A stretch of DNA of 64,000 nt from an uncultured delta proteobacterium. Lineage in GTDB: Bacteria; Myxococcota_A; Polyangia; Polyangiales; B10-G4. The stretch covers positions 384,001 through 448,000 of the forward strand of contig CAVSGI010000015.1 in NCBI GenBank assembly GCA_963727445.1, read 5' to 3'. A program made the position numbers. Below are positions 16,201-22,200 of this stretch, in pieces (the first letter of the stretch is position 1; each line of letters opens with the position of its first letter).

Positions 16201-19200
16201 TCTGGCTCGAGCAGGATCGGCCCGTCGCCGCCGTGCGAAAGGCGGTCGCGTCGCGCGACGCCGAGAGCCCGCTCACACTCGGCGCCGTGGAGGAGCTCCC
16301 TCTGGCCGAGGCCGACGTGGTCTTCGTGCGGAAGGACCCACCCTTCGACAGTCCCTACTTGTGGCTCACCTTGATCCTCGAGCATCTGCGGGACGACCGG
16401 ACCCTGGTCGTGAACGACCCCCGGGCGCTTCGCGACGCCAACGAGAAGCTCTACGCCCACCACTTCCCCGAGTACATGCCGAAAACCCTCGTGGTCTCGG
16501 ACGAGGGGCGCATTCGACGTTTCCTCGAAGAGCTCGAAGGCAGAGAAGCGATCATCAAGCCGGTGGACGGGCATGGGGGCGCCAGCGTCTACGCCATCGG
16601 GCTCGGCGGCCGAAACTTCCGCGGGCTCGTCGAGGCGGTGACCCACGGCGGCCGGCGCGTGGCCATCGTCCAGGAGCTGATCCCCGAGGTCACCCAAGGT
16701 GACAAGCGGATCCTCCTCCTCGAGGGTGAGCCCCTGGGCGCCATCCTCCGGGTCCCCACCGGCGGCGACGTCCGCAGCAACATCCACGTCGGCGGCCAGG
16801 TCGTCGCCACCGAGCTGACCGAGCGGGAGCGGGAGATTCTGCGCCGCCATGGGGCCGCGGCTCCGCGACGACGGCCTCTTCTTCGTGGGGATCGACGTGA
16901 TCGGCCCCTACCTCACGGAGGTCAACGTCACGAGCCCCACGGGCATCCAGCAGGCGTCGCGCCTGAGCGGTCAGGACCTCGAGACGCGCGTGGTCGAGGC
17001 CCTCGAAGCGCGGGTGGCTTCACGGAGCTGACCAGGGCCGCAATTGAAAACGGCGCCGTCGCGGATGCGACGACGCCGTCTTCGATACGAAAGTGAAGCT
17101 CAGAGGGCTTCGTCGTCGGTCGCCGCCTCGTCGGTGGCGCCTTCCTCGGCGGCCGGATCACCCATGCCGTCGTCGGTGGCGGCCTCGTCGCCGTAGCCGT
17201 CGTCGGCAGCCGGATCGCCGTAGGCGTCATCCGTGGCGGTCTCGTCGCCGGTGGTCATCGTGTCGTCGCTCTGGGACTCGGCAGCCTCGGACTCGGAGCC
17301 GCCGCCGCAGGCGGTGACGGAGAAGGCCAGCGCAGCGGCGATGAAAAGAGTGGAAAGGGTCTTCATGGAGTAACCTCGCTCGTGTTCTTTGGTGGCTTTC
17401 CCGGCCAAAGACAAAGCGTGAGCCAGGGGCGTGCCGCACAGAAGCATTTCATCGTCGTCAATTGTCAGCGAATGTCGGCAGCGCTGGGAGCCAATGATAA
17501 CGGGCGTCTACCTCTCCTGAGGCCTGTCCATATCCGCTTTCGCTGCATTTCGATTCCCGACCTGCTCTGGCAGGATCCTCGTGCATGAGCCTGGCAGGAC
17601 TCGCGGAGCTCGCGTACTGGCTCGGTCCCTGGACCTCCGATGACGGCGTGCCAGCGGACGTTCGCACCGAGGAAGAGCAGGTGCCGCCCGCGCTCGGTGC
17701 CGGCGCCGGGCGACCGATGCGTGCGCGCATCTATCGCCCCACCCGACGCGCGGCACAGGGGTCGCTCCTCGTGGTGCAGGGCCTTCATTACGCCGGCCCC
17801 GATGACCCGCGGATGGATCGCGTGGCGCGCATCCTCGCGGCGAGCGGCCTCGTCGTCTACGCGCCATTCCTTCCCGACTTCGCCGCGCTCCGCGTGGCGG
17901 AGACGTTGGTCACCGACACCGCGCGCGCCTTCGACCGCCTCGAGGCGCTACCCGCGCGTCCGCCGGGGCGCCCGGGGATCTTCAGCATCTCCTTCGGCTC
18001 GATGCCCGCGCTGCGCGTGGCCGCCGACCCCGAGCGCTCGTCGCGCGTCGGCGGGCTGCTCTGCTTCGGCGGCTACGCCGACTTCCGCGAGACGATCCGC
18101 TTCTGCCTCTGCGGTGGCGAGGGGCTGCCGCACGATCCGTTGAACCGCCCCGCGGTCTTCATCAACATCGTGGATGATCTCGAGGGCACCCCCGACGATC
18201 CGAGCCAGCTGCTCGCGGCCTGGGATCGCTTCGTACGTCGCACCTGGGGGCGCGTGGAGATGAAAGAAATGGCGCGCTACGCGCCGGTCGCCGAGGAGAT
18301 CGCCGAATCGCTACCCGAAGAGCAGCGGGCGCTCTTCCTGCAGGGCTGCGACGTCCTGCCCGGCGGTGAGGAGATCGGCGTGGCCGCGCTCGAGCGCGCC
18401 GCCGATCGCTTCGCCTACCTCGATCCCCGACCCCACCTCTCCACGCTCCGCTGCCCGGTCTACGTCGTCCACGGCCGAGACGACGACGTGATCCCCTACA
18501 CCCAGGCCGAGAAGATCCGCGCTGCCCTCCCCGCCCACATCCACTCCCGCGTCCTGCTCACCGGCCTCTACGCCCACACCGGCGGCACGGGCCTCCTCTC
18601 CTTCCTCCGCAAAGCCAGGCTCGTCCCCACCGAGCTCCGCTCCATGATCGGCATTCTCCAAGCCATCCATCGAACGGGGACGGACCCGAGAGGCTGACCC
18701 TCGTGCTCAGCGGCGGCGTCGGGAGGCCGAGGACGTCGTGTCGACCGGCTGCTGTCGCGGTGGTGGTGTGACCGGGGTCTCGCGCGGCGGCGTGGTGTGG
18801 ACGGGCTCGGGGGTCTCCTCGAGGGTCCCAGGGCCAGTGGACGTGGTCGTCATGGCGGGCGTGGTCGTCATGGCGGGCGTGGTCGTCGTGGTGGACCTGG
18901 TCGTCGTGGTGGACATCGTCGTTCGGCGTCGTCTCGGTCTCGGCGTCTCGGCGGGTGGTGGGCCGGTGGCCGGCGGCCCGGCGTCGGGCGGGCCGGCATC
19001 GACGGCGCCCTCGTCCGGCTCCCACTGCTCACCCCGCATACGCGCCTCGTGCTCGGCCTCCGAAATGGGCTGACCGTTCCACGTGGCCGGCAGCCATGCC
19101 CGGGTGGTGTGGCAGTCCCCGCAGGTGAGCGGGAAGGTGAGGTGGTCCGGGAAGGTGTCGTCGTCGTAGGTGTCGCGGTGACAGTCGACGCACGCGCCCC

Positions 19201-22200
19201 CCATCCCCTCGAACACCGGCGGGTCGTCATCGTGACAATCGAAGCATTCGACGTGTGCGTGCGCGCCGGTCAGCGGCCACTCGTGCTCGACCACCCGCCG
19301 CGGCCTCCACCTCTCGGTGGTGTGGCACACCGCGCATGTCGTCGGCTTCTCCCCCACGTGATGTCGCGCCCCCTGGTACTCCTCGAGATGGCACGACGCG
19401 CATCGCGCCGAGCCCGCGTCGGGCGAGGCCTCACCACCGTCCGCGCAGCCGAGGAGCGAAAGGCAGAGGAGCCACGAGCCGATGGCGCGCGCGGCGCGCA
19501 TCAGAACACCTCCTCACGAAACGGCATGCCGAGCGACTCGCATGCACGCCGGACCTTCGCGCCGAGCCCCGGCGGGCCACAGAAGTAGACGGAGACCTTT
19601 TCGCCGCGGTGCGCCTTCTTGATCGCGGCGAGCTCCTTCTTCCAGCTCGGCGCGCTCATGCGCGTCTTGGCCCGAAGGCCGGTCGCGAGGTCCGTCCGGC
19701 CGTATGCGTGTGCGAGCTCGCGCGCAGCTTCGAGCCCGAACGCCGTCGCACCCGTGCGCCCGCCGGTCATGTGGAGGTGGAGCTCGAGCACGTCGCGCGC
19801 GTCGCGTCTCTCGACTTCGGCGAGCAGATCCCGGAACCATTCGAAAGAGCGCTGATCCCGGTTGAGCCAGAAGAAGTGCGCCTTGTCGAGGTTGGGACCG
19901 CTTCCATCCTCGCGCGAGACGATGCTCTCGAGCACGCTGGCGAAAGGCGTGACGCCGATGCCCGCGCCGATGAGCACAGCGACGCGCGACTGGAAGATGT
20001 GGGCGCTCGGTGAGCCGTAAGGCCCGTCGAGAAACACGAAGAGGTCGTCCGGCGCCTCCCCGCTTCGCGCCTCCGCCAGGCTTCGGAGAGCCTCCGTCCA
20101 GTTGCCGAGCGAGCGCACGTGGAGGGTGATGGTGTCGCGCTCGGGCGCGCTGCTGATCGTGAACGGGTGCCACTCGTGCTTTGCCACGGCGGGGATGCGC
20201 ACGAAGACGTAGTCCGCGGGCGAGAACGAAAAGCCGAGGGGCCGCTCGATCTCCACCCGCGTGACTCCGGACTTCAGCGGCTCGATCGCGAGGATGCGTG
20301 CGCGCCGACCACGCCGGAGCGCGCGAAAGAGCTGCTCGACGCCGAAACCGAGCAGAGGCAGCCCCAGCCACAAGAGGACGTGCGGCGCGTGAATGACGAG
20401 GAGAACGAGCAGCGGCGCATAGAGCAGGTGCGTGAAGTAGAAGATCTCGAAGCGCCGCGAGCGCCGGAAGAAGCCGAGAGCGGCGATCCACATCACGACG
20501 AAGATCACGACGAGCAACGAGCCCGTGAGCCCCGTCTTCGTCTCGAAGAGCGCATGGGTGATCGGCTCGTCGTGCCCCGCGGAGTAACTCGCGACGAAAG
20601 CGCCCACGTGAGCCAGGCTCCCGAAGAAGAACGTGTGCCCCACGACCTTGTGGAAGGCGACCGCGGAGTCGATCGGGATGAGGCGCCCGAGAAAGCTGGC
20701 GCGCAGCCGCGTGAGAAACCGGCGCGCCACGGGCACGAGCACCACACCCGCGTCGAAGGCGAGCGCTGCCCCGGTGGCGCGCCCGACGCGCATCATCACG
20801 TGCTCCCCCAGGACCATGTTGTACGTCGCGACGAAGAGCCCGACGTTCATCAGCGCGAAGGCGGCGAGCACGATGCCGCCCCGCACGTGGTTTTCGACGA
20901 AGCGCGCGAACGCGTTCGGCTCGGGCTCGCCACCCGTCTCGTCGGTCAGGCGTGCGACCACGTCGCGACCCGGGGCCATCCACAGAGCCTCGGCGCGTGC
21001 CATCTCGTGAAGGAGCTCCGGGCGCGCACGAACGAGTCGCTCGAGCTCCGCGAAGGAGACGCGCCCGTCGCGGTCGGCGTCGAGCGCCTGGAGCAACCCG
21101 AGCGCGAGCGTCTCGGGCGAGTGCTCCTCGTCCGGCTCGATGTCGTCCTCGGCGAGGCCGATGGCGATCATCCGCTCGAGCTCCGTCTGCGACAGATATC
21201 CGTCGCCGTCGTGGTCATGCAGACGAAACGCGAAGGTGAGGCGGTCGTTGTCGGTGCCGTAGACGAGCTTGCGCACACCTTCCATGAACTCCGCGCGGCT
21301 GACGGATCCGTCCGCGTCGGTGTCCAGCTGCGCGAGCATGCGCTGGGCCAGGTACTCGCTCTTCAGCCCGAGCGCTTCCTTGAGCGATTCGACGTCGATG
21401 TGCGGCGCGTCCCCGGCGATCTGATCGAATCGGTGCTGGAGCAGATCGAGGGTCTGGGCCCCGGGCTTTGCGCGACGCGGCGAGTCGGTCATGGGCTCGT
21501 CGGCTTCCTCCTCCGAAGCGACCCTCTGATAGGCGCGCCTCGCTGTAAGGCCACCAGGGACCTGCGGACGGCGCCTGCCTGCGGATCCTACGTGTACTGC
21601 CAGAACGCGCAGGCGGCGGTCTCGTCGGCGTTCACGAAGACGTAGACCACACCGAAGAGCCCTGCGTCCGGCCAGTCGTCCTTCGCGCCTCCGATGCCGT
21701 CGAAGTCGAGCTGAAGGAGGAAGCGATAGGGAACCTGGCCCTTGCCGAGGATCTCGCGCGGGTGCTGCACCCAGGTTGGCGTGCCGCCGATCTTCGAGAA
21801 CCCGTCCGAGCGCGGCAGGTCGAGGGCTTCGAGGGCCTCGGCGAGCTCGGGATCGCGCTGCGTGAGAGGCGAGGCGCGCGCCTCGTCGATCTCCCACGTC
21901 GGCTCCGAGACCATCAGGGCGCGTGCGTCGAGCACGGGCCCCATCGGATCGCACGCCGCCGCCCTGCCGAAGTCTTCCTTGGAGATCAGGCGCACGCGAT
22001 TGTGCAGCAGGCTCTCCGTCGCGATGCCGCTCGTGTCGACCCAGACCGAGACGCCCGCGTGCTTCTTCAGGAGATCGCCGGTCTCGATCTGGAGCAGGAG
22101 ACCGAGGGGATGCGAATCGCTCCCGTCGCGGAGCTCGCCCATCACCTCTTCGCGCTGTTCCTCCGGAACCTCGAAGAAGTTCAGCTCCTCGGGCAGGTGC

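Follow-up and report, generated by a model that had tools for sequence, protein, structure and literature searches.

A NOX5-type gene and the pentahaem cytochrome c lipoprotein gene joined to it encode a candidate electron exporter in Polyangiales

The window, the whole 64,000-nucleotide stretch of DNA that was analysed, carries a NOX5-type gene joined stop codon to start codon with a gene for a pentahaem cytochrome c lipoprotein. The pair probably encodes a Ca2+-gated, NADPH-driven exporter of two subunits that passes electrons across the membrane to cytochrome c. Its conservation suggests that a protein partner receives electrons from the NOX, whether in place of superoxide formation or in addition to it. 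In the literature searched, no description was found of a NOX5-type gene paired with this cytochrome. The features, in window coordinates and all on the minus strand, are as follows.

19501..21492, NOX5-type flavocytochrome b gene, 663 aa (stop codon 19501-19503 included)
20998..21435, N-terminal EF-hand region, approximately residues 20–165, canonical Ca2+ loops at 57, 93 and 138, with which Pfam agrees
20308..20910, six-helix dihaem membrane domain, approximately residues 195–395, aligned to the csNOX5 transmembrane chain 5o0t (E 1.5e-31)
20596..20598, codon of Phe299, which takes the place of csNOX5 His317 (the O2-pocket histidine), opposite residue 111 of the 5o0t chain
20572..20577, Gly306-His307 in periplasmic loop C, marker of the linked clade, from an alignment column and an alignment-free check
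19504..20298, FAD/NADPH dehydrogenase domain, residues 399–663, with HPFT at 442, GIGVTP at 511 and CGP at 638; also found by Pfam
19499..19515, gene junction, with GAGGAGG at 19515-19509 and TGATG at 19503-19499
18707..19501, gene for the 264-aa pentahaem cytochrome c lipoprotein, from translation, Pfam and 49 loci with a homologue downstream of NOX
19445..19501, lipobox-bearing signal peptide, residues 1–19, ending LLGC (Cys19), from translation
19109..19402, haem domain, residues 34–131, five CXXCH motifs, with conserved non-motif histidines H48, H73, H81 and H120
18710..19108, Pro/Thr-rich tail, residues 132–264, with a conserved C-terminal motif at its end
18710-18745, C-terminal motif of the window cytochrome, VDTTSSASRRRR

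Sequence features of the NOX and the cytochrome

Judged by its sequence, the gene at 19501-21492 encodes a complete NOX5-type enzyme, made up of three EF-hands, a membrane domain for two haems and a domain for FAD and NADPH. The open reading frame extends from stop to stop as far as 22341, and the 663 residues are counted from the methionine that matches homologues. Pfam assigned EF-hands (EF-hand_7), Ferric_reduct, FAD_binding_8 and NAD_binding_6 to the protein; among solved chains its best relative is 6sz5_B, which bears the name NADPH oxidase 5 (E 1.6e-106), and its dehydrogenase domain matches the csNOX5 DH domain 5o0x (E 1.2e-71). A regular expression for the loop DxDxDGxxxxxE found three copies in the window NOX, and three likewise in 41 of the 44 linked NOX proteins (those with the cytochrome gene downstream) whose N-terminus was covered. 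The residue alignment covers 105 of 108 loci, L038, L048 and L130 having been left out for want of a single HSP across the membrane domain, and in all 105 the four haem b histidines are invariant. Following csNOX5 numbering, we take H281 and H355 of the window NOX to be the ligands of the inner haem and H295 and H368 those of the outer haem.

The cytochrome is predicted from its translation to be exported and lipid-anchored, with five c-haem attachment sites in approximately 100 residues. The CXXCH motifs begin at residues 34, 56, 86, 104 and 127, and Pfam Cytochrome_C7 is matched at 29.6 bits against a cut-off of 24.8. Among the 49 homologues of alignment A2 the five motifs are invariant, with H73 and H81 present in 49/49, H48 in 47/49 and H120 in 42/49; the well-conserved non-motif histidines thus number just four for five haems. 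A lipobox-like motif is present in 41 of the 49 homologues and a Cys after small residues in five more, while three have a signal peptide without the Cys. At the extreme C-terminus, 30 of the 49 match the regular expression P-D-x-x-[TS]-x-[AP]-S-R-R, and the same search over the whole genome gave 12 matches, the sole credible one being this cytochrome gene. The pentahaem module itself is more widely used: its profile matches 70 of the 201 genomes of the order, against 43 of 201 for the NOX, and it occurs as tandem repeats within larger cytochromes and in other clusters, one of them elsewhere in the same genome. NOX proteins hold their dehydrogenase domain in the cytoplasm, and the membrane face on which the NOX has its outer haem is also that of the exported lipoprotein.

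Conservation of the gene pair

The stop codon TGA of the NOX gene (19503-19501) and the start codon ATG of the cytochrome gene (19501-19499) have one base in common, and in 45 of 49 loci the cytochrome gene begins 0–9 nt beyond the final codon of NOX. The earlier note had placed the cytochrome 50–170 nt downstream in other genomes, a figure that proved to be an alignment offset; its description of the window genes (ORF coordinates, 264 aa, five CXXCH, lipobox and stop/start overlap) was reproduced in full. Linkage was recounted in a separate sample of 108 distinct NOX5-type loci, split at 47.5% identity. At or above this value there are 56 loci, of which 53 are assessable (at least 400 nt downstream, or the gene visible), and a gene with five or eight CXXCH motifs lies directly downstream on the same strand in 49 of these. 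Below it the cytochrome is found downstream in 0 of 50 assessable loci (52 loci, two too short), so that the drop in linkage at lower identity holds in the new sample. Among 32 loci whose downstream sequence reaches at least 2.9 kb from the NOX gene, ORF families lying outside the span of the pair recur in three at most.

On the tree the linked NOX genes form one clade with an SH-like support of 0.986, in which all 48 assessable tips carry the cytochrome, and whose members are only approximately 50% identical to the window protein. The contrast of 49 to 0 is therefore one ancient gain rather than repeated covariation. Close relatives without the cytochrome do exist, as the earlier note had reported; in the new sample they are four of 53 (L038, L070, L078 and L129). 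They are not losses within the linked clade but belong to a separate sister clade or outgroup. The linkage thus arose once in Polyangiales.

Changes on the periplasmic side of the linked NOX proteins

Four residues after the outer-haem ligand, where csNOX5 has His317, histidine is present in none of the 48 linked loci (F32 L7 I3 Y3 A1 T1 V1) and in 48 of the 52 unlinked loci, the remainder having Ala (two), Arg (one) or Tyr (one). This upholds the loss of the O2-pocket histidine that the earlier note had described in cytochrome-linked NOX proteins. This loss is not confined to loci linked to the cytochrome. Three of the four sister-clade loci in the tree (L029, L078 and L125) lack both the histidine and the cytochrome, as does L038, outside those four; an alphaproteobacterial lineage (Pacificispira, L168) has Tyr in its place and no ORF of at least 110 aa with two or more CXXCH motifs up to 6 kb away in either direction. 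In L070 both pocket residues remain, although the gene stands head-to-head with an MtrC/MtrF-like cytochrome gene. The earlier interpretation is supported in part: the conserved operon, the lipoprotein nature of the pentahaem cytochrome and the loss of the histidine stand, with the qualification that the linkage is a single gain and that the loss is not tied to it.

A better marker of the linked clade than the lost histidine is Gly306-His307 in periplasmic loop C, found in 48 of 48 linked loci, whereas 47 other loci and five of the sister clade or outgroup lack it at that column; without recourse to an alignment, GH was recovered in 48/48 linked and 1/52 unlinked loci. In the membrane domain, the positions at which the linked clade is distinct from other NOX5 proteins, minus those shared with the sister clade, are Y227, A237G, G239A, H299F, N302A/S, Gly306-His307, an insertion at 308, A320R and W373L, and all lie at or near the periplasmic side.

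A second pairing and a predicted complex

A second, independent pairing of NOX5 with multihaem cytochromes is found in Neomarinimicrobiota, which brings the independent lineages to only two. In its four NOX5 genes both pocket residues are gone, Arg being replaced by Glu or Met and His by Tyr or Phe. The NOX5 gene comes after a 10-CXXCH gene in all three loci with upstream DNA, and within 6 kb flanks the order assigned with Pfam is 5-haem, porin-like, 4-haem, 10-haem and NOX5 in 3/3 loci, the porin-like assignment being a lead.

Complex prediction was performed with the NOX membrane domain, the cytochrome haem domain and four of the seven haems. The median score was 0.38 (runs 0.38, 0.29 and 0.54) and the best of three controls scored 0.00, with a partner pLDDT of at least 68 and at least 73% of contacts agreeing between runs. 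When the tool was calibrated, the mark given to this pair was also attained for 116 of 157 solved complexes and for two of 215 mismatched pairs, but scores of 0.60 or below count as weak. The predicted model thus offers weak support for a complex.

Proposed function and alternative explanations

In the proposed exporter, Ca2+ binding would, as it does in NOX5, start the transfer of hydride from NADPH to FAD, and electrons would traverse the membrane via the two stacked b haems. From the outer haem the docked pentahaem cytochrome, and not O2, would receive most of them, at an outer face presumably remodelled for that partner by the exchange of the pocket His for Phe, by the Gly-His and one extra residue of loop C, and by the other changes. 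The five haems (eight in some relatives) may then serve as a short wire to an acceptor without a gene nearby, for which other multihaem cytochromes of the organism, Fe(III) chelates in the periplasm and more distant O2 are candidates. Coupled translation, through the stop/start overlap and the internal Shine-Dalgarno-like site, would aid joint production of both subunits. We infer haem attachment, NOX-cytochrome binding and electron flow alike. The reading is a probable one: it draws on the intact cofactor sites, the kept pair, the periplasmic-side changes, the Neomarinimicrobiota case, the complex score, weak as it is, and the precedent of SpNOX and MsrQ, and is tempered by that same weak score, by there being only two lineages, by His loss without a cytochrome, by L070, by the retained arginine and by a module that is not exclusive to NOX.

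It is unlikely that the enzyme is a superoxide-producing NOX5 whose cytochrome acts on the product, for instance by re-oxidising or trapping superoxide beside its source or by shielding the periplasm, with no direct electrons from the outer haem. The pocket arginine (equivalent to Arg256) is kept in 42 of 48 linked loci, superoxide readily reduces cytochrome c, the basis of a standard assay (described in PMC5676040), and the missing histidine does not show that O2 reduction was lost, because SpNOX, which has neither pocket residue, is described as still using O2 (PMC11031084, PMC11564096). A scavenger, however, would need neither an invariant Gly-His and a remodelled outer-face loop nor stop-start coupling in 45 of 49 loci, and the Neomarinimicrobiota operon, with three multihaem cytochromes and a porin-like gene, resembles a wire rather than a scavenger.

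Reductive iron uptake like that of the eukaryotic FRE ferric reductases, with the cytochrome as terminal reductase of periplasmic Fe(III) chelates or siderophores, would be a special case of the exporter with its acceptor defined, and is decidedly unlikely. It accords with the place of NOX in the ferric-reductase-domain superfamily (Pfam Ferric_reduct), with the lack of a further conserved partner gene in 32 loci, and with MsrQ-like and PepSY-like systems, which a passage of PMC8238504 ties to iron reduction and uptake. Against this, the 32 loci show no conserved iron transporter, siderophore gene or Fur-type context beside the pair, Ca2+ control by EF-hands is no obvious fit with iron homeostasis, and SpNOX's activity as a ferric reductase was judged unlikely to be physiological in the account of PMC11564096. 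That the two genes are co-transcribed neighbours without direct electron transfer, the cytochrome serving another respiratory chain and the His loss being lineage drift, is very improbable. Such a reading would suit the wide distribution of the module, which serves in other clusters too (one of these at another place in this genome), His loss in lineages without the cytochrome, and the single origin of the linkage in Polyangiales, but the cytochrome is kept in 48/48 assessable clade members where no flanking gene recurs in more than three of 32 loci, its C-terminal motif is specific to it within the genome, the second lineage shows the same pairing, and the complex scored 0.38 against 0.00 for controls.

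Relation to known systems

Cylindrospermum stagnale csNOX5 and human NOX5 share the domain order, the four haem histidines and the pocket arginine with the window NOX, which differs in having Phe for csNOX5 His317, the loop C Gly-His with one extra residue, and translational coupling to a pentahaem cytochrome c gene. To our knowledge NOX5 is solely a superoxide producer, and we know of no protein acceptor for it. The closest solved sequences to the cytochrome profile are UndA (6.3e-07), NrfH (1.8e-05), NrfB (2.7e-05, profile positions 3–116) and 6r2q_A (2.3e-04); NrfB/MtrA-type pentahaem modules and UndA have a similar haem density, the matches being weak and largely of haem motifs, and no NCBIfam equivalog reached its cut-off on the window cytochrome. 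We know of no lipid anchor, Pro/Thr tail or C-terminal motif of this kind in NrfB.

The exposed outer haem of E. coli MsrQ, with Fre as flavin reductase, is described as passing electrons to periplasmic MsrP (passages in PMC11031084, PMC11564096 and PMC5676040), and MsrQ-MsrP resembles the proposed pair in joining a dihaem membrane protein of the ferric-reductase-domain type to a dedicated periplasmic partner. Unlike the window NOX, MsrQ has neither a fused NADPH dehydrogenase nor EF-hands, and in place of a multihaem cytochrome its partner, MsrP, is a molybdoenzyme whose substrate is known. SpNOX of Streptococcus pneumoniae is described as a direct reductant of cytochrome c in vitro, even when O2 is absent, and the authors of that work suggest that bacterial NOX enzymes have protein acceptors, a natural one being suspected for SpNOX (passages in PMC5676040, PMC11564096 and PMC11031084); with neither pocket residue it makes superoxide, as stated in PMC11031084. 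Bacterial like the window NOX, SpNOX in these accounts misses both the His and the Arg of the pocket; it has no EF-hands, is constitutively active and has no known partner gene. The cytochrome c of its assays appears there as an assay reagent, reportedly the usual mitochondrial protein.

The FRD-like inner-membrane proteins of the porin-cytochrome clusters PCC3 and PCC4, from the context of Fe(II) oxidisers, carry two HX13H motifs on helices 3 and 5, are encoded with porins and multihaem cytochromes, and are proposed to take electrons through the inner membrane (He et al. 2017, as described in passages of PMC5566968). At approximately 300 aa in that description, and with no fused FAD/NADPH domain or EF-hands, they differ from the window NOX, and their systems are closer to the Neomarinimicrobiota operon than to the two-gene module of the window.

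Overlapping genes for a NOX5-type protein and a pentahaem lipoprotein

The earlier note had described a NOX5-type gene in a two-gene arrangement with that of a pentahaem cytochrome, and this description held when both ORFs, their Pfam domains, the CXXCH motifs and the base shared by the stop and start codons were re-read in the window. The pair and its neighbours are as follows:

19501-21492, minus strand: NOX5-type ORF of 663 aa, from the Met at 21492, where all homologues begin aligning, to its end at 19501; the stop-to-stop frame extends to 22341
18707-19501, minus strand: cytochrome ORF of 264 aa, ATG at 19501-19499, sharing one base with the NOX stop
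14912-16021, minus strand: Ser/Thr protein kinase
21588-23378, minus strand: ORF whose DUF1963 match is borderline; its end lies 96 nt upstream of the NOX start
24608-25642, minus strand: MscS-type channel

At the junction the NOX TGA (19503-19501) overlaps the cytochrome ATG by a single base, with GAGGAGG located 6 nt ahead of the ATG. The gene beyond the cytochrome is convergent, its stop codon 9 nt from that of the cytochrome. A scan of the locus gave no promoter-like sites and one terminator-like site, inside the NOX gene, a count not above that in shuffled sequences. None of the kinase, the DUF1963-like ORF and the MscS-type channel is conserved beside the pair in other genomes.

The NOX protein matches the Pfam families EF-hand_7 (1.6e-15), FAD_binding_8 (8.1e-20) and NAD_binding_6 (2.9e-25) as well as the ferric-reductase membrane domain, and contains three canonical Ca2+ loops (at residues 57, 93 and 138) and the dehydrogenase motifs HPFT, GIGVTP and CGP. 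Its nearest solved relatives are 6sz5_B, a chain named NADPH oxidase 5 (E 1.6e-106), and then DUOX1; the fragments of Cylindrospermum stagnale NOX5 (csNOX5) are matched through the DH domain (5o0x, 1.2e-71) and the TM domain (5o0t, 5.6e-31). Residues H281, H295, H355 and H368 align with the csNOX5 haem ligands and are invariant across 105 loci, the histidine pairs on helices 3 and 5 being spaced 14 and 13 residues. With EF-hands, the two histidine pairs of a ferric reductase and a FAD_binding_8/NAD_binding_6 dehydrogenase, the protein has the make-up of a NOX5-type NADPH oxidase, and on alignment every predicted cofactor site of a Ca2+-regulated NOX5 is present. It departs from NOX5 in the O2 pocket, where R238 is kept but the equivalent of csNOX5 His317 is Phe299.

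A further substitution is Leu361 (20410-20412, minus strand), at the position of csNOX5 Trp378, which a passage of PMC8129163 counts among the aromatic residues lying between the haems. Trp occupies this position in 47/48 linked copies, those with the cytochrome gene directly downstream, and in 47/57 other aligned loci; Leu is found in the window copy alone (n = 105).

The signal peptide of the cytochrome closes with the lipobox LLGC19; five CXXCH motifs follow within residues 34-131, and then a 133-residue Pro/Thr-rich tail. Several CXXCH motifs, an export signal and a match to Pfam Cytochrome_C7 (29.6 bits against a cut-off of 24.8) place it among the multihaem cytochromes c of the class III or c7-like kind. 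In NCBIfam all matches were far under their cut-offs, with no equivalog near. Membership of the NrfB pentahaem family is not indicated by a curated model, since the NrfB model is absent from the NCBIfam matches and the sole link is a weak profile match (2.7e-05, nearly full length); the other solved sequences weakly matched by the cytochrome profile were UndA (6.3e-07), NrfH (1.8e-05) and 6r2q_A (2.3e-04). These features point to an exported, lipid-anchored pentahaem protein, and the overlapping stop and start codons to translational coupling of the two genes.

A conserved pairing of single origin

NOX5-type loci were collected from three sources: the same order, of which 201 genomes were searched and 43 matched at E <=1e-20; 18 extra regions from the order search, fetched with wider flanks; and the best 80 of 293 relatives in a profile scan of the species-genome collection. 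Removal of identical copies left 108 distinct loci. At least 47.5% identity to the window NOX was found for 56 loci, and a homologous cytochrome gene lies directly downstream on the same strand in 49 of the 53 that could be assessed, the exceptions being L038, L070, L078 and L129; below 47.5% identity there was none in 50 assessable loci. The downstream cytochromes are true homologues (haem domains 38-57% identical) with five CXXCH motifs in 37 cases and eight in 12, and their start codon falls 0-9 nt past the last NOX codon in 45/49 loci. In 32 linked loci the sequence extends 2.9 kb or more past the downstream end of NOX; no ORF family outside the NOX-cytochrome span was common to more than three of them, which makes the pair a two-gene module complete in itself.

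A FastTree phylogeny (LG model, residues 195-663, 105 loci, midpoint root) placed the 48 cytochrome-linked tips, together with three whose contigs end too early, in one clade (SH-like support 0.986); the 49th linked locus, L048, has a partial NOX gene and was left outside the tree. The sister group, L129, L078, L125 and L029 (support 0.961), has no cytochrome, and L070 branches next. L038, whose NOX gene is split by a frameshift, was also outside the tree; its sequence is of the sister type, with Arg at position 299 and without the Gly-His pair described below. The linkage contrast between close and distant relatives drawn in the earlier note stood on recount (49/53 versus 0/50), but because all linked tips fall in one clade it amounts to a single ancient acquisition, retained since. 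The close orthologues said there to lack the cytochrome form separate lineages in the tree, rather than losses inside the linked clade. Judged from these sequences, the pairing is stable across deep divergence.

A second NOX5-type gene of the same genome lies outside the window (C9:351218-353098; 38% identity by tblastn). Its pocket keeps the canonical Arg and His, and the region fetched around it shows no ORF bearing at least three CXXCH motifs. The copy beside the cytochrome can be set against it within one genome.

The outer face of the linked NOX proteins

The O2 pocket proposed in passages of PMC8129163 and PMC11031084 consists of Arg256, His313 and His317 with the outer haem, the His and Arg being conserved in eukaryotic NOX. 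In the alignment with 5o0t, Phe299 pairs with the histidine that follows the outer-haem ligand by four residues, and Arg238 with the pocket arginine.

Pocket residues in linked and unlinked NOX5-type proteins
Position 299, pocket His column: His in 0/48 linked, 48/52 unlinked
Position 238, pocket Arg column: Arg in 42/48 linked, 47/52 unlinked

A scan for positions separating the linked clade from 47 other NOX5 proteins revealed further membrane-domain changes, placed on or close to the periplasmic side and not found in the sister group. The sharpest separator is an invariant Gly306-His307 in loop C, adjoining a one-residue insertion, which is present in 48/48 linked proteins and absent from the same column in the 47 others and in five sister or outgroup loci. 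In an alignment-free check, GH occurred 11-12 residues past the ligand in all 48 linked proteins and the three unassessable clade members, and in 1/52 unlinked proteins (L094), where the register is off by one residue and the pocket His is retained. A search of 1.84 billion proteins was read for its best 150 cluster representatives, 130 of which show the helix-3 motif: the pocket His is present in 103 and missing from 27, with GH in 10 of these 27 versus none of the 103.

Haem ligands and tail of the cytochrome

All five CXXCH motifs are invariant in the alignment of 49 cytochromes. Four histidines outside the motifs are well conserved (H73 and H81 in 49/49, H48 in 47 and H120 in 42), and no methionine is. 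Just four non-motif histidines are found in the haem domains of 7/49 proteins, three of which have no methionine at all. With four well-conserved non-motif histidines for five haems and no conserved Met, one haem may therefore be without an internal sixth ligand. A haem possibly short of one ligand would be a suggestive counterpart to the single invariant histidine that the NOX proteins have gained on the periplasmic side. An AlphaFold2 model of the haem domain, built without haems, was poor (mean pLDDT 63, pTM 0.37).

The extreme C-terminus carries the motif P-D-x-x-[TS]-x-[AP]-S-R-R (18710-18745 in the window, minus strand), the ending of the long-tailed five-haem forms, found by regular expression in 30/49 homologues behind a Pro/Thr linker of 60-130 residues; the eight-haem forms end mostly in G-T-R-S-R-R. 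A general sorting signal was considered and rejected, as only this cytochrome was credible among 12 matches genome-wide. The target motif of the flavin transferase ApbE is given as [S/T]GA[S/T] in a passage of PMC8238504. The cytochrome motif fits this target, reading exactly D-x-x-[ST]-G-A-S, in 8/49 proteins, and reads S-S-A-S, an inexact fit, in the window copy. The ApbE gene of the window's genome lies elsewhere, not adjacent to the pair.

Lineages that depart from a pocket-histidine rule

The sister clade has lost the histidine and gained no cytochrome. In two of its members, L125 (2833-4198) and L029 (213-1484), a NOX with Ala at the pocket-His position is followed by a gene on the opposite strand for a small membrane-anchored Pro-rich protein and, some 0.5 kb downstream of NOX, by an ApbE gene (Pfam 1e-53 and 1e-54). 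The gene context hints at a flavin-based partner instead of a cytochrome; the [ST]GA[ST] motif was absent from the NOX proteins and the translated opposite-strand ORFs of both loci.

At L070 (365-6013), a NOX5 with Arg and His kept lies head-to-head with an 811-aa MtrC/MtrF-like cytochrome (Pfam 1.1e-52), and the cytochrome strand contains two stop-to-stop frames with 10 and 9 CXXCH motifs. For P0078, a protein search representative from Pacificispira spongiicola with Tyr at the pocket-His position, a cytochrome neighbour had been expected beforehand. This expectation failed, no ORF of at least 110 aa with two or more CXXCH motifs being present within 6 kb on either side. Adjacent multihaem cytochromes were thus found in two of the four histidine-less lineages examined, and Streptococcus pneumoniae NOX (SpNOX) is described in part of PMC11031084 as lacking both pocket residues and retaining O2 reduction; a missing histidine alone is therefore no proof of a change of acceptor.

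A NOX5 operon with cytochromes in Neomarinimicrobiota

L128, from a Neomarinimicrobiota MAG, is 34% identical to the window NOX; in the tree its long branch lies next to the NOX5 group of cyanobacteria. Glu and Tyr occupy its pocket positions; in three relatives, identified in 301 genomes of the phylum, the first is Glu or Met and the second Tyr or Phe. A scan for further relatives returned the same four genomes only. Upstream DNA is available for three loci, in each of which a gene with 10 CXXCH motifs runs up to the NOX5 start or overlaps it, and with 6 kb flanks an identical five-gene order was seen in all three (about 250-8000 in each of L164, L165 and L167).

Gene order of the Neomarinimicrobiota operon
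Gene 1: 5-haem cytochrome, 596 aa
Gene 2: porin-like protein, 453 aa, C-terminal Phe; 'Porin family protein' is among its nearest atlas clusters (0.98), which is no more than a lead
Gene 3: 4-haem c554-like protein
Gene 4: 10-haem cytochrome, membrane-anchored
Gene 5: EF-hand NOX5 without either O2-pocket residue

The arrangement, whose origin is separate from that of the Polyangiales module, looks like a porin-cytochrome conduit with a putative inner-membrane entry provided by NOX5. The window and the linked clade differ from such conduits in that no third gene, an outer-membrane porin included, was found conserved beside the pair in 32 loci.

Predicted binding, mechanism and alternatives

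Complex prediction was performed with the NOX membrane domain (alignment of 47 rows), the cytochrome haem domain (49 rows) and four of the seven haems. The outcome was classed as 'weak support', with runs of 0.38, 0.29 and 0.54 (median 0.38) and 0.00 for all three controls; partner pLDDT was at least 68 and contact agreement between runs at least 73%, and no interface was reported. The tool's mark is attained by 116/157 solved complexes versus 2/215 mismatched pairs, passes of 0.60 or below being graded weak, a calibration from which the use of our own alignments and added ligands deviates.

The NOX-cytochrome feature is real and strongly conserved, and the evidence comes from two independent lineages. 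As for its function, we infer that Ca2+ would switch on hydride transfer from NADPH to FAD, that the two b haems would carry electrons across the membrane, that the outer haem would pass them to the docked cytochrome via the remodelled loop-C face, and that the cytochrome would relay them to a further acceptor. As a whole this mechanism is considered reasonably probable.

The main rival is that NOX still makes superoxide and the cytochrome deals with it. The retained Arg238 and the O2 reduction of SpNOX are to be set on its side and the clade-specific Gly306-His307 and the close stop-start spacing in 45/49 loci on the other, and it is judged unlikely. A role in iron reduction would be a special case of the proposed mechanism; it is regarded as quite improbable. 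That the genes are co-transcribed and nothing more seems, next to the retention of the pair in 48/48 assessable clade members, a very slim prospect. MsrPQ provides another comparison, but the partner there is an MsrP-type molybdoenzyme; here it is a cytochrome c, with no other gene conserved in 32 loci.

The proposed electron transfer from NOX to the cytochrome, taken over both lineages, leads to a broader reading that is offered tentatively. NOX5-type enzymes of at least two bacterial phyla would be Ca2+-gated NADPH:multihaem-cytochrome reductases, not oxidases, and hence a quinone-independent inner-membrane entry to periplasmic or extracellular electron transfer. In Polyangiales, loop-C His307 would give a contact, possibly the missing sixth ligand, for the c haem without a conserved distal histidine, and another site of function, for docking or covalent flavin, would be formed by the C-terminal motif D-x-x-[ST]-x-[AP]-S, which the long tail, taken to be flexible, carries.

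Relation to described systems

Passages of PMC5676040, PMC11031084 and PMC11564096 report that SpNOX reduces cytochrome c directly, with its authors suspecting protein acceptors, and present MsrQ-MsrP as the one bacterial ferric-reductase-domain (FRD) system whose protein acceptor is defined. A passage of PMC11031084 states that what SpNOX and CsNOX do physiologically is unknown. Parts of PMC5566968 and PMC8238504 describe, respectively, FRD-like membrane proteins in porin-cytochrome clusters and MsrQ-like flavinylated systems. In full-text literature outside subscription journals, no paper was found that describes a NOX5-type gene together with a multihaem cytochrome partner, and the terms 'cytochrome c' and 'NOX5-like' are absent from the text of the FRD superfamily paper PMC3591440.

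Structural papers on bacterial NOX, in the parts consulted, ask if O2 or a protein is the real acceptor, and the locus provides a concrete, genetically linked candidate, with Phe299 and Gly306-His307 as mutable marker residues for testing the protein-acceptor idea. If the proposal is true, no NOX would have had a natural protein acceptor identified before these pairs. Confirmation would mean that the NOX scaffold can be converted from a superoxide generator to a regulated exporter of NADPH electrons to cytochromes, and that marine Neomarinimicrobiota and aerobic soil myxobacteria alike have a Ca2+-controlled, quinone-independent entry to extracellular electron transfer. A compact two-gene module for engineered outward electron flow would then be gained as well.

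Related genes outside the pair

The pentahaem module is not private to NOX. In a whole-genome HMM search its profile matched 70/201 genomes of the order; some of these have no NOX, and some matches are large cytochromes with the module in tandem. Natural fusions of NOX and cytochrome were sought among longer proteins with the haem domain, and none of 15 matches was genuine. P0009 (801 aa, FAD_binding_8 and cytochrome families) was rejected because its NOX part is largely out of frame, and is so read as an overlapping-frame gene call or poor assembly.

A separate multihaem cluster is present in the window's own genome (C10:1376000-1394000), with a similar one in another genome (G069:C2), where the NOX query found no match. 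Besides cytochromes with 10 and 11 CXXCH motifs, the C10 cluster encodes a further multihaem protein of 705 aa, an Fe-S flavoprotein of 437 aa (Fer4 and Pyr_redox_3) and two unknown proteins. It also carries pentahaem-module paralogues, and Ser/Thr kinases and a sigma-54 activator lie on its flanks. The cluster may be a downstream partner of the NOX-cytochrome pair, but nothing was found that ties the two together.

In Neomarinimicrobiota, L137 (1495-2982, minus strand) and about 17 other genomes encode proteins of about 500 aa with EF-hand, FAD_binding_8 and NAD_binding_6 domains and no membrane domain. These proteins, in effect NOX5 minus its haem part, are commoner in the phylum than full NOX5.
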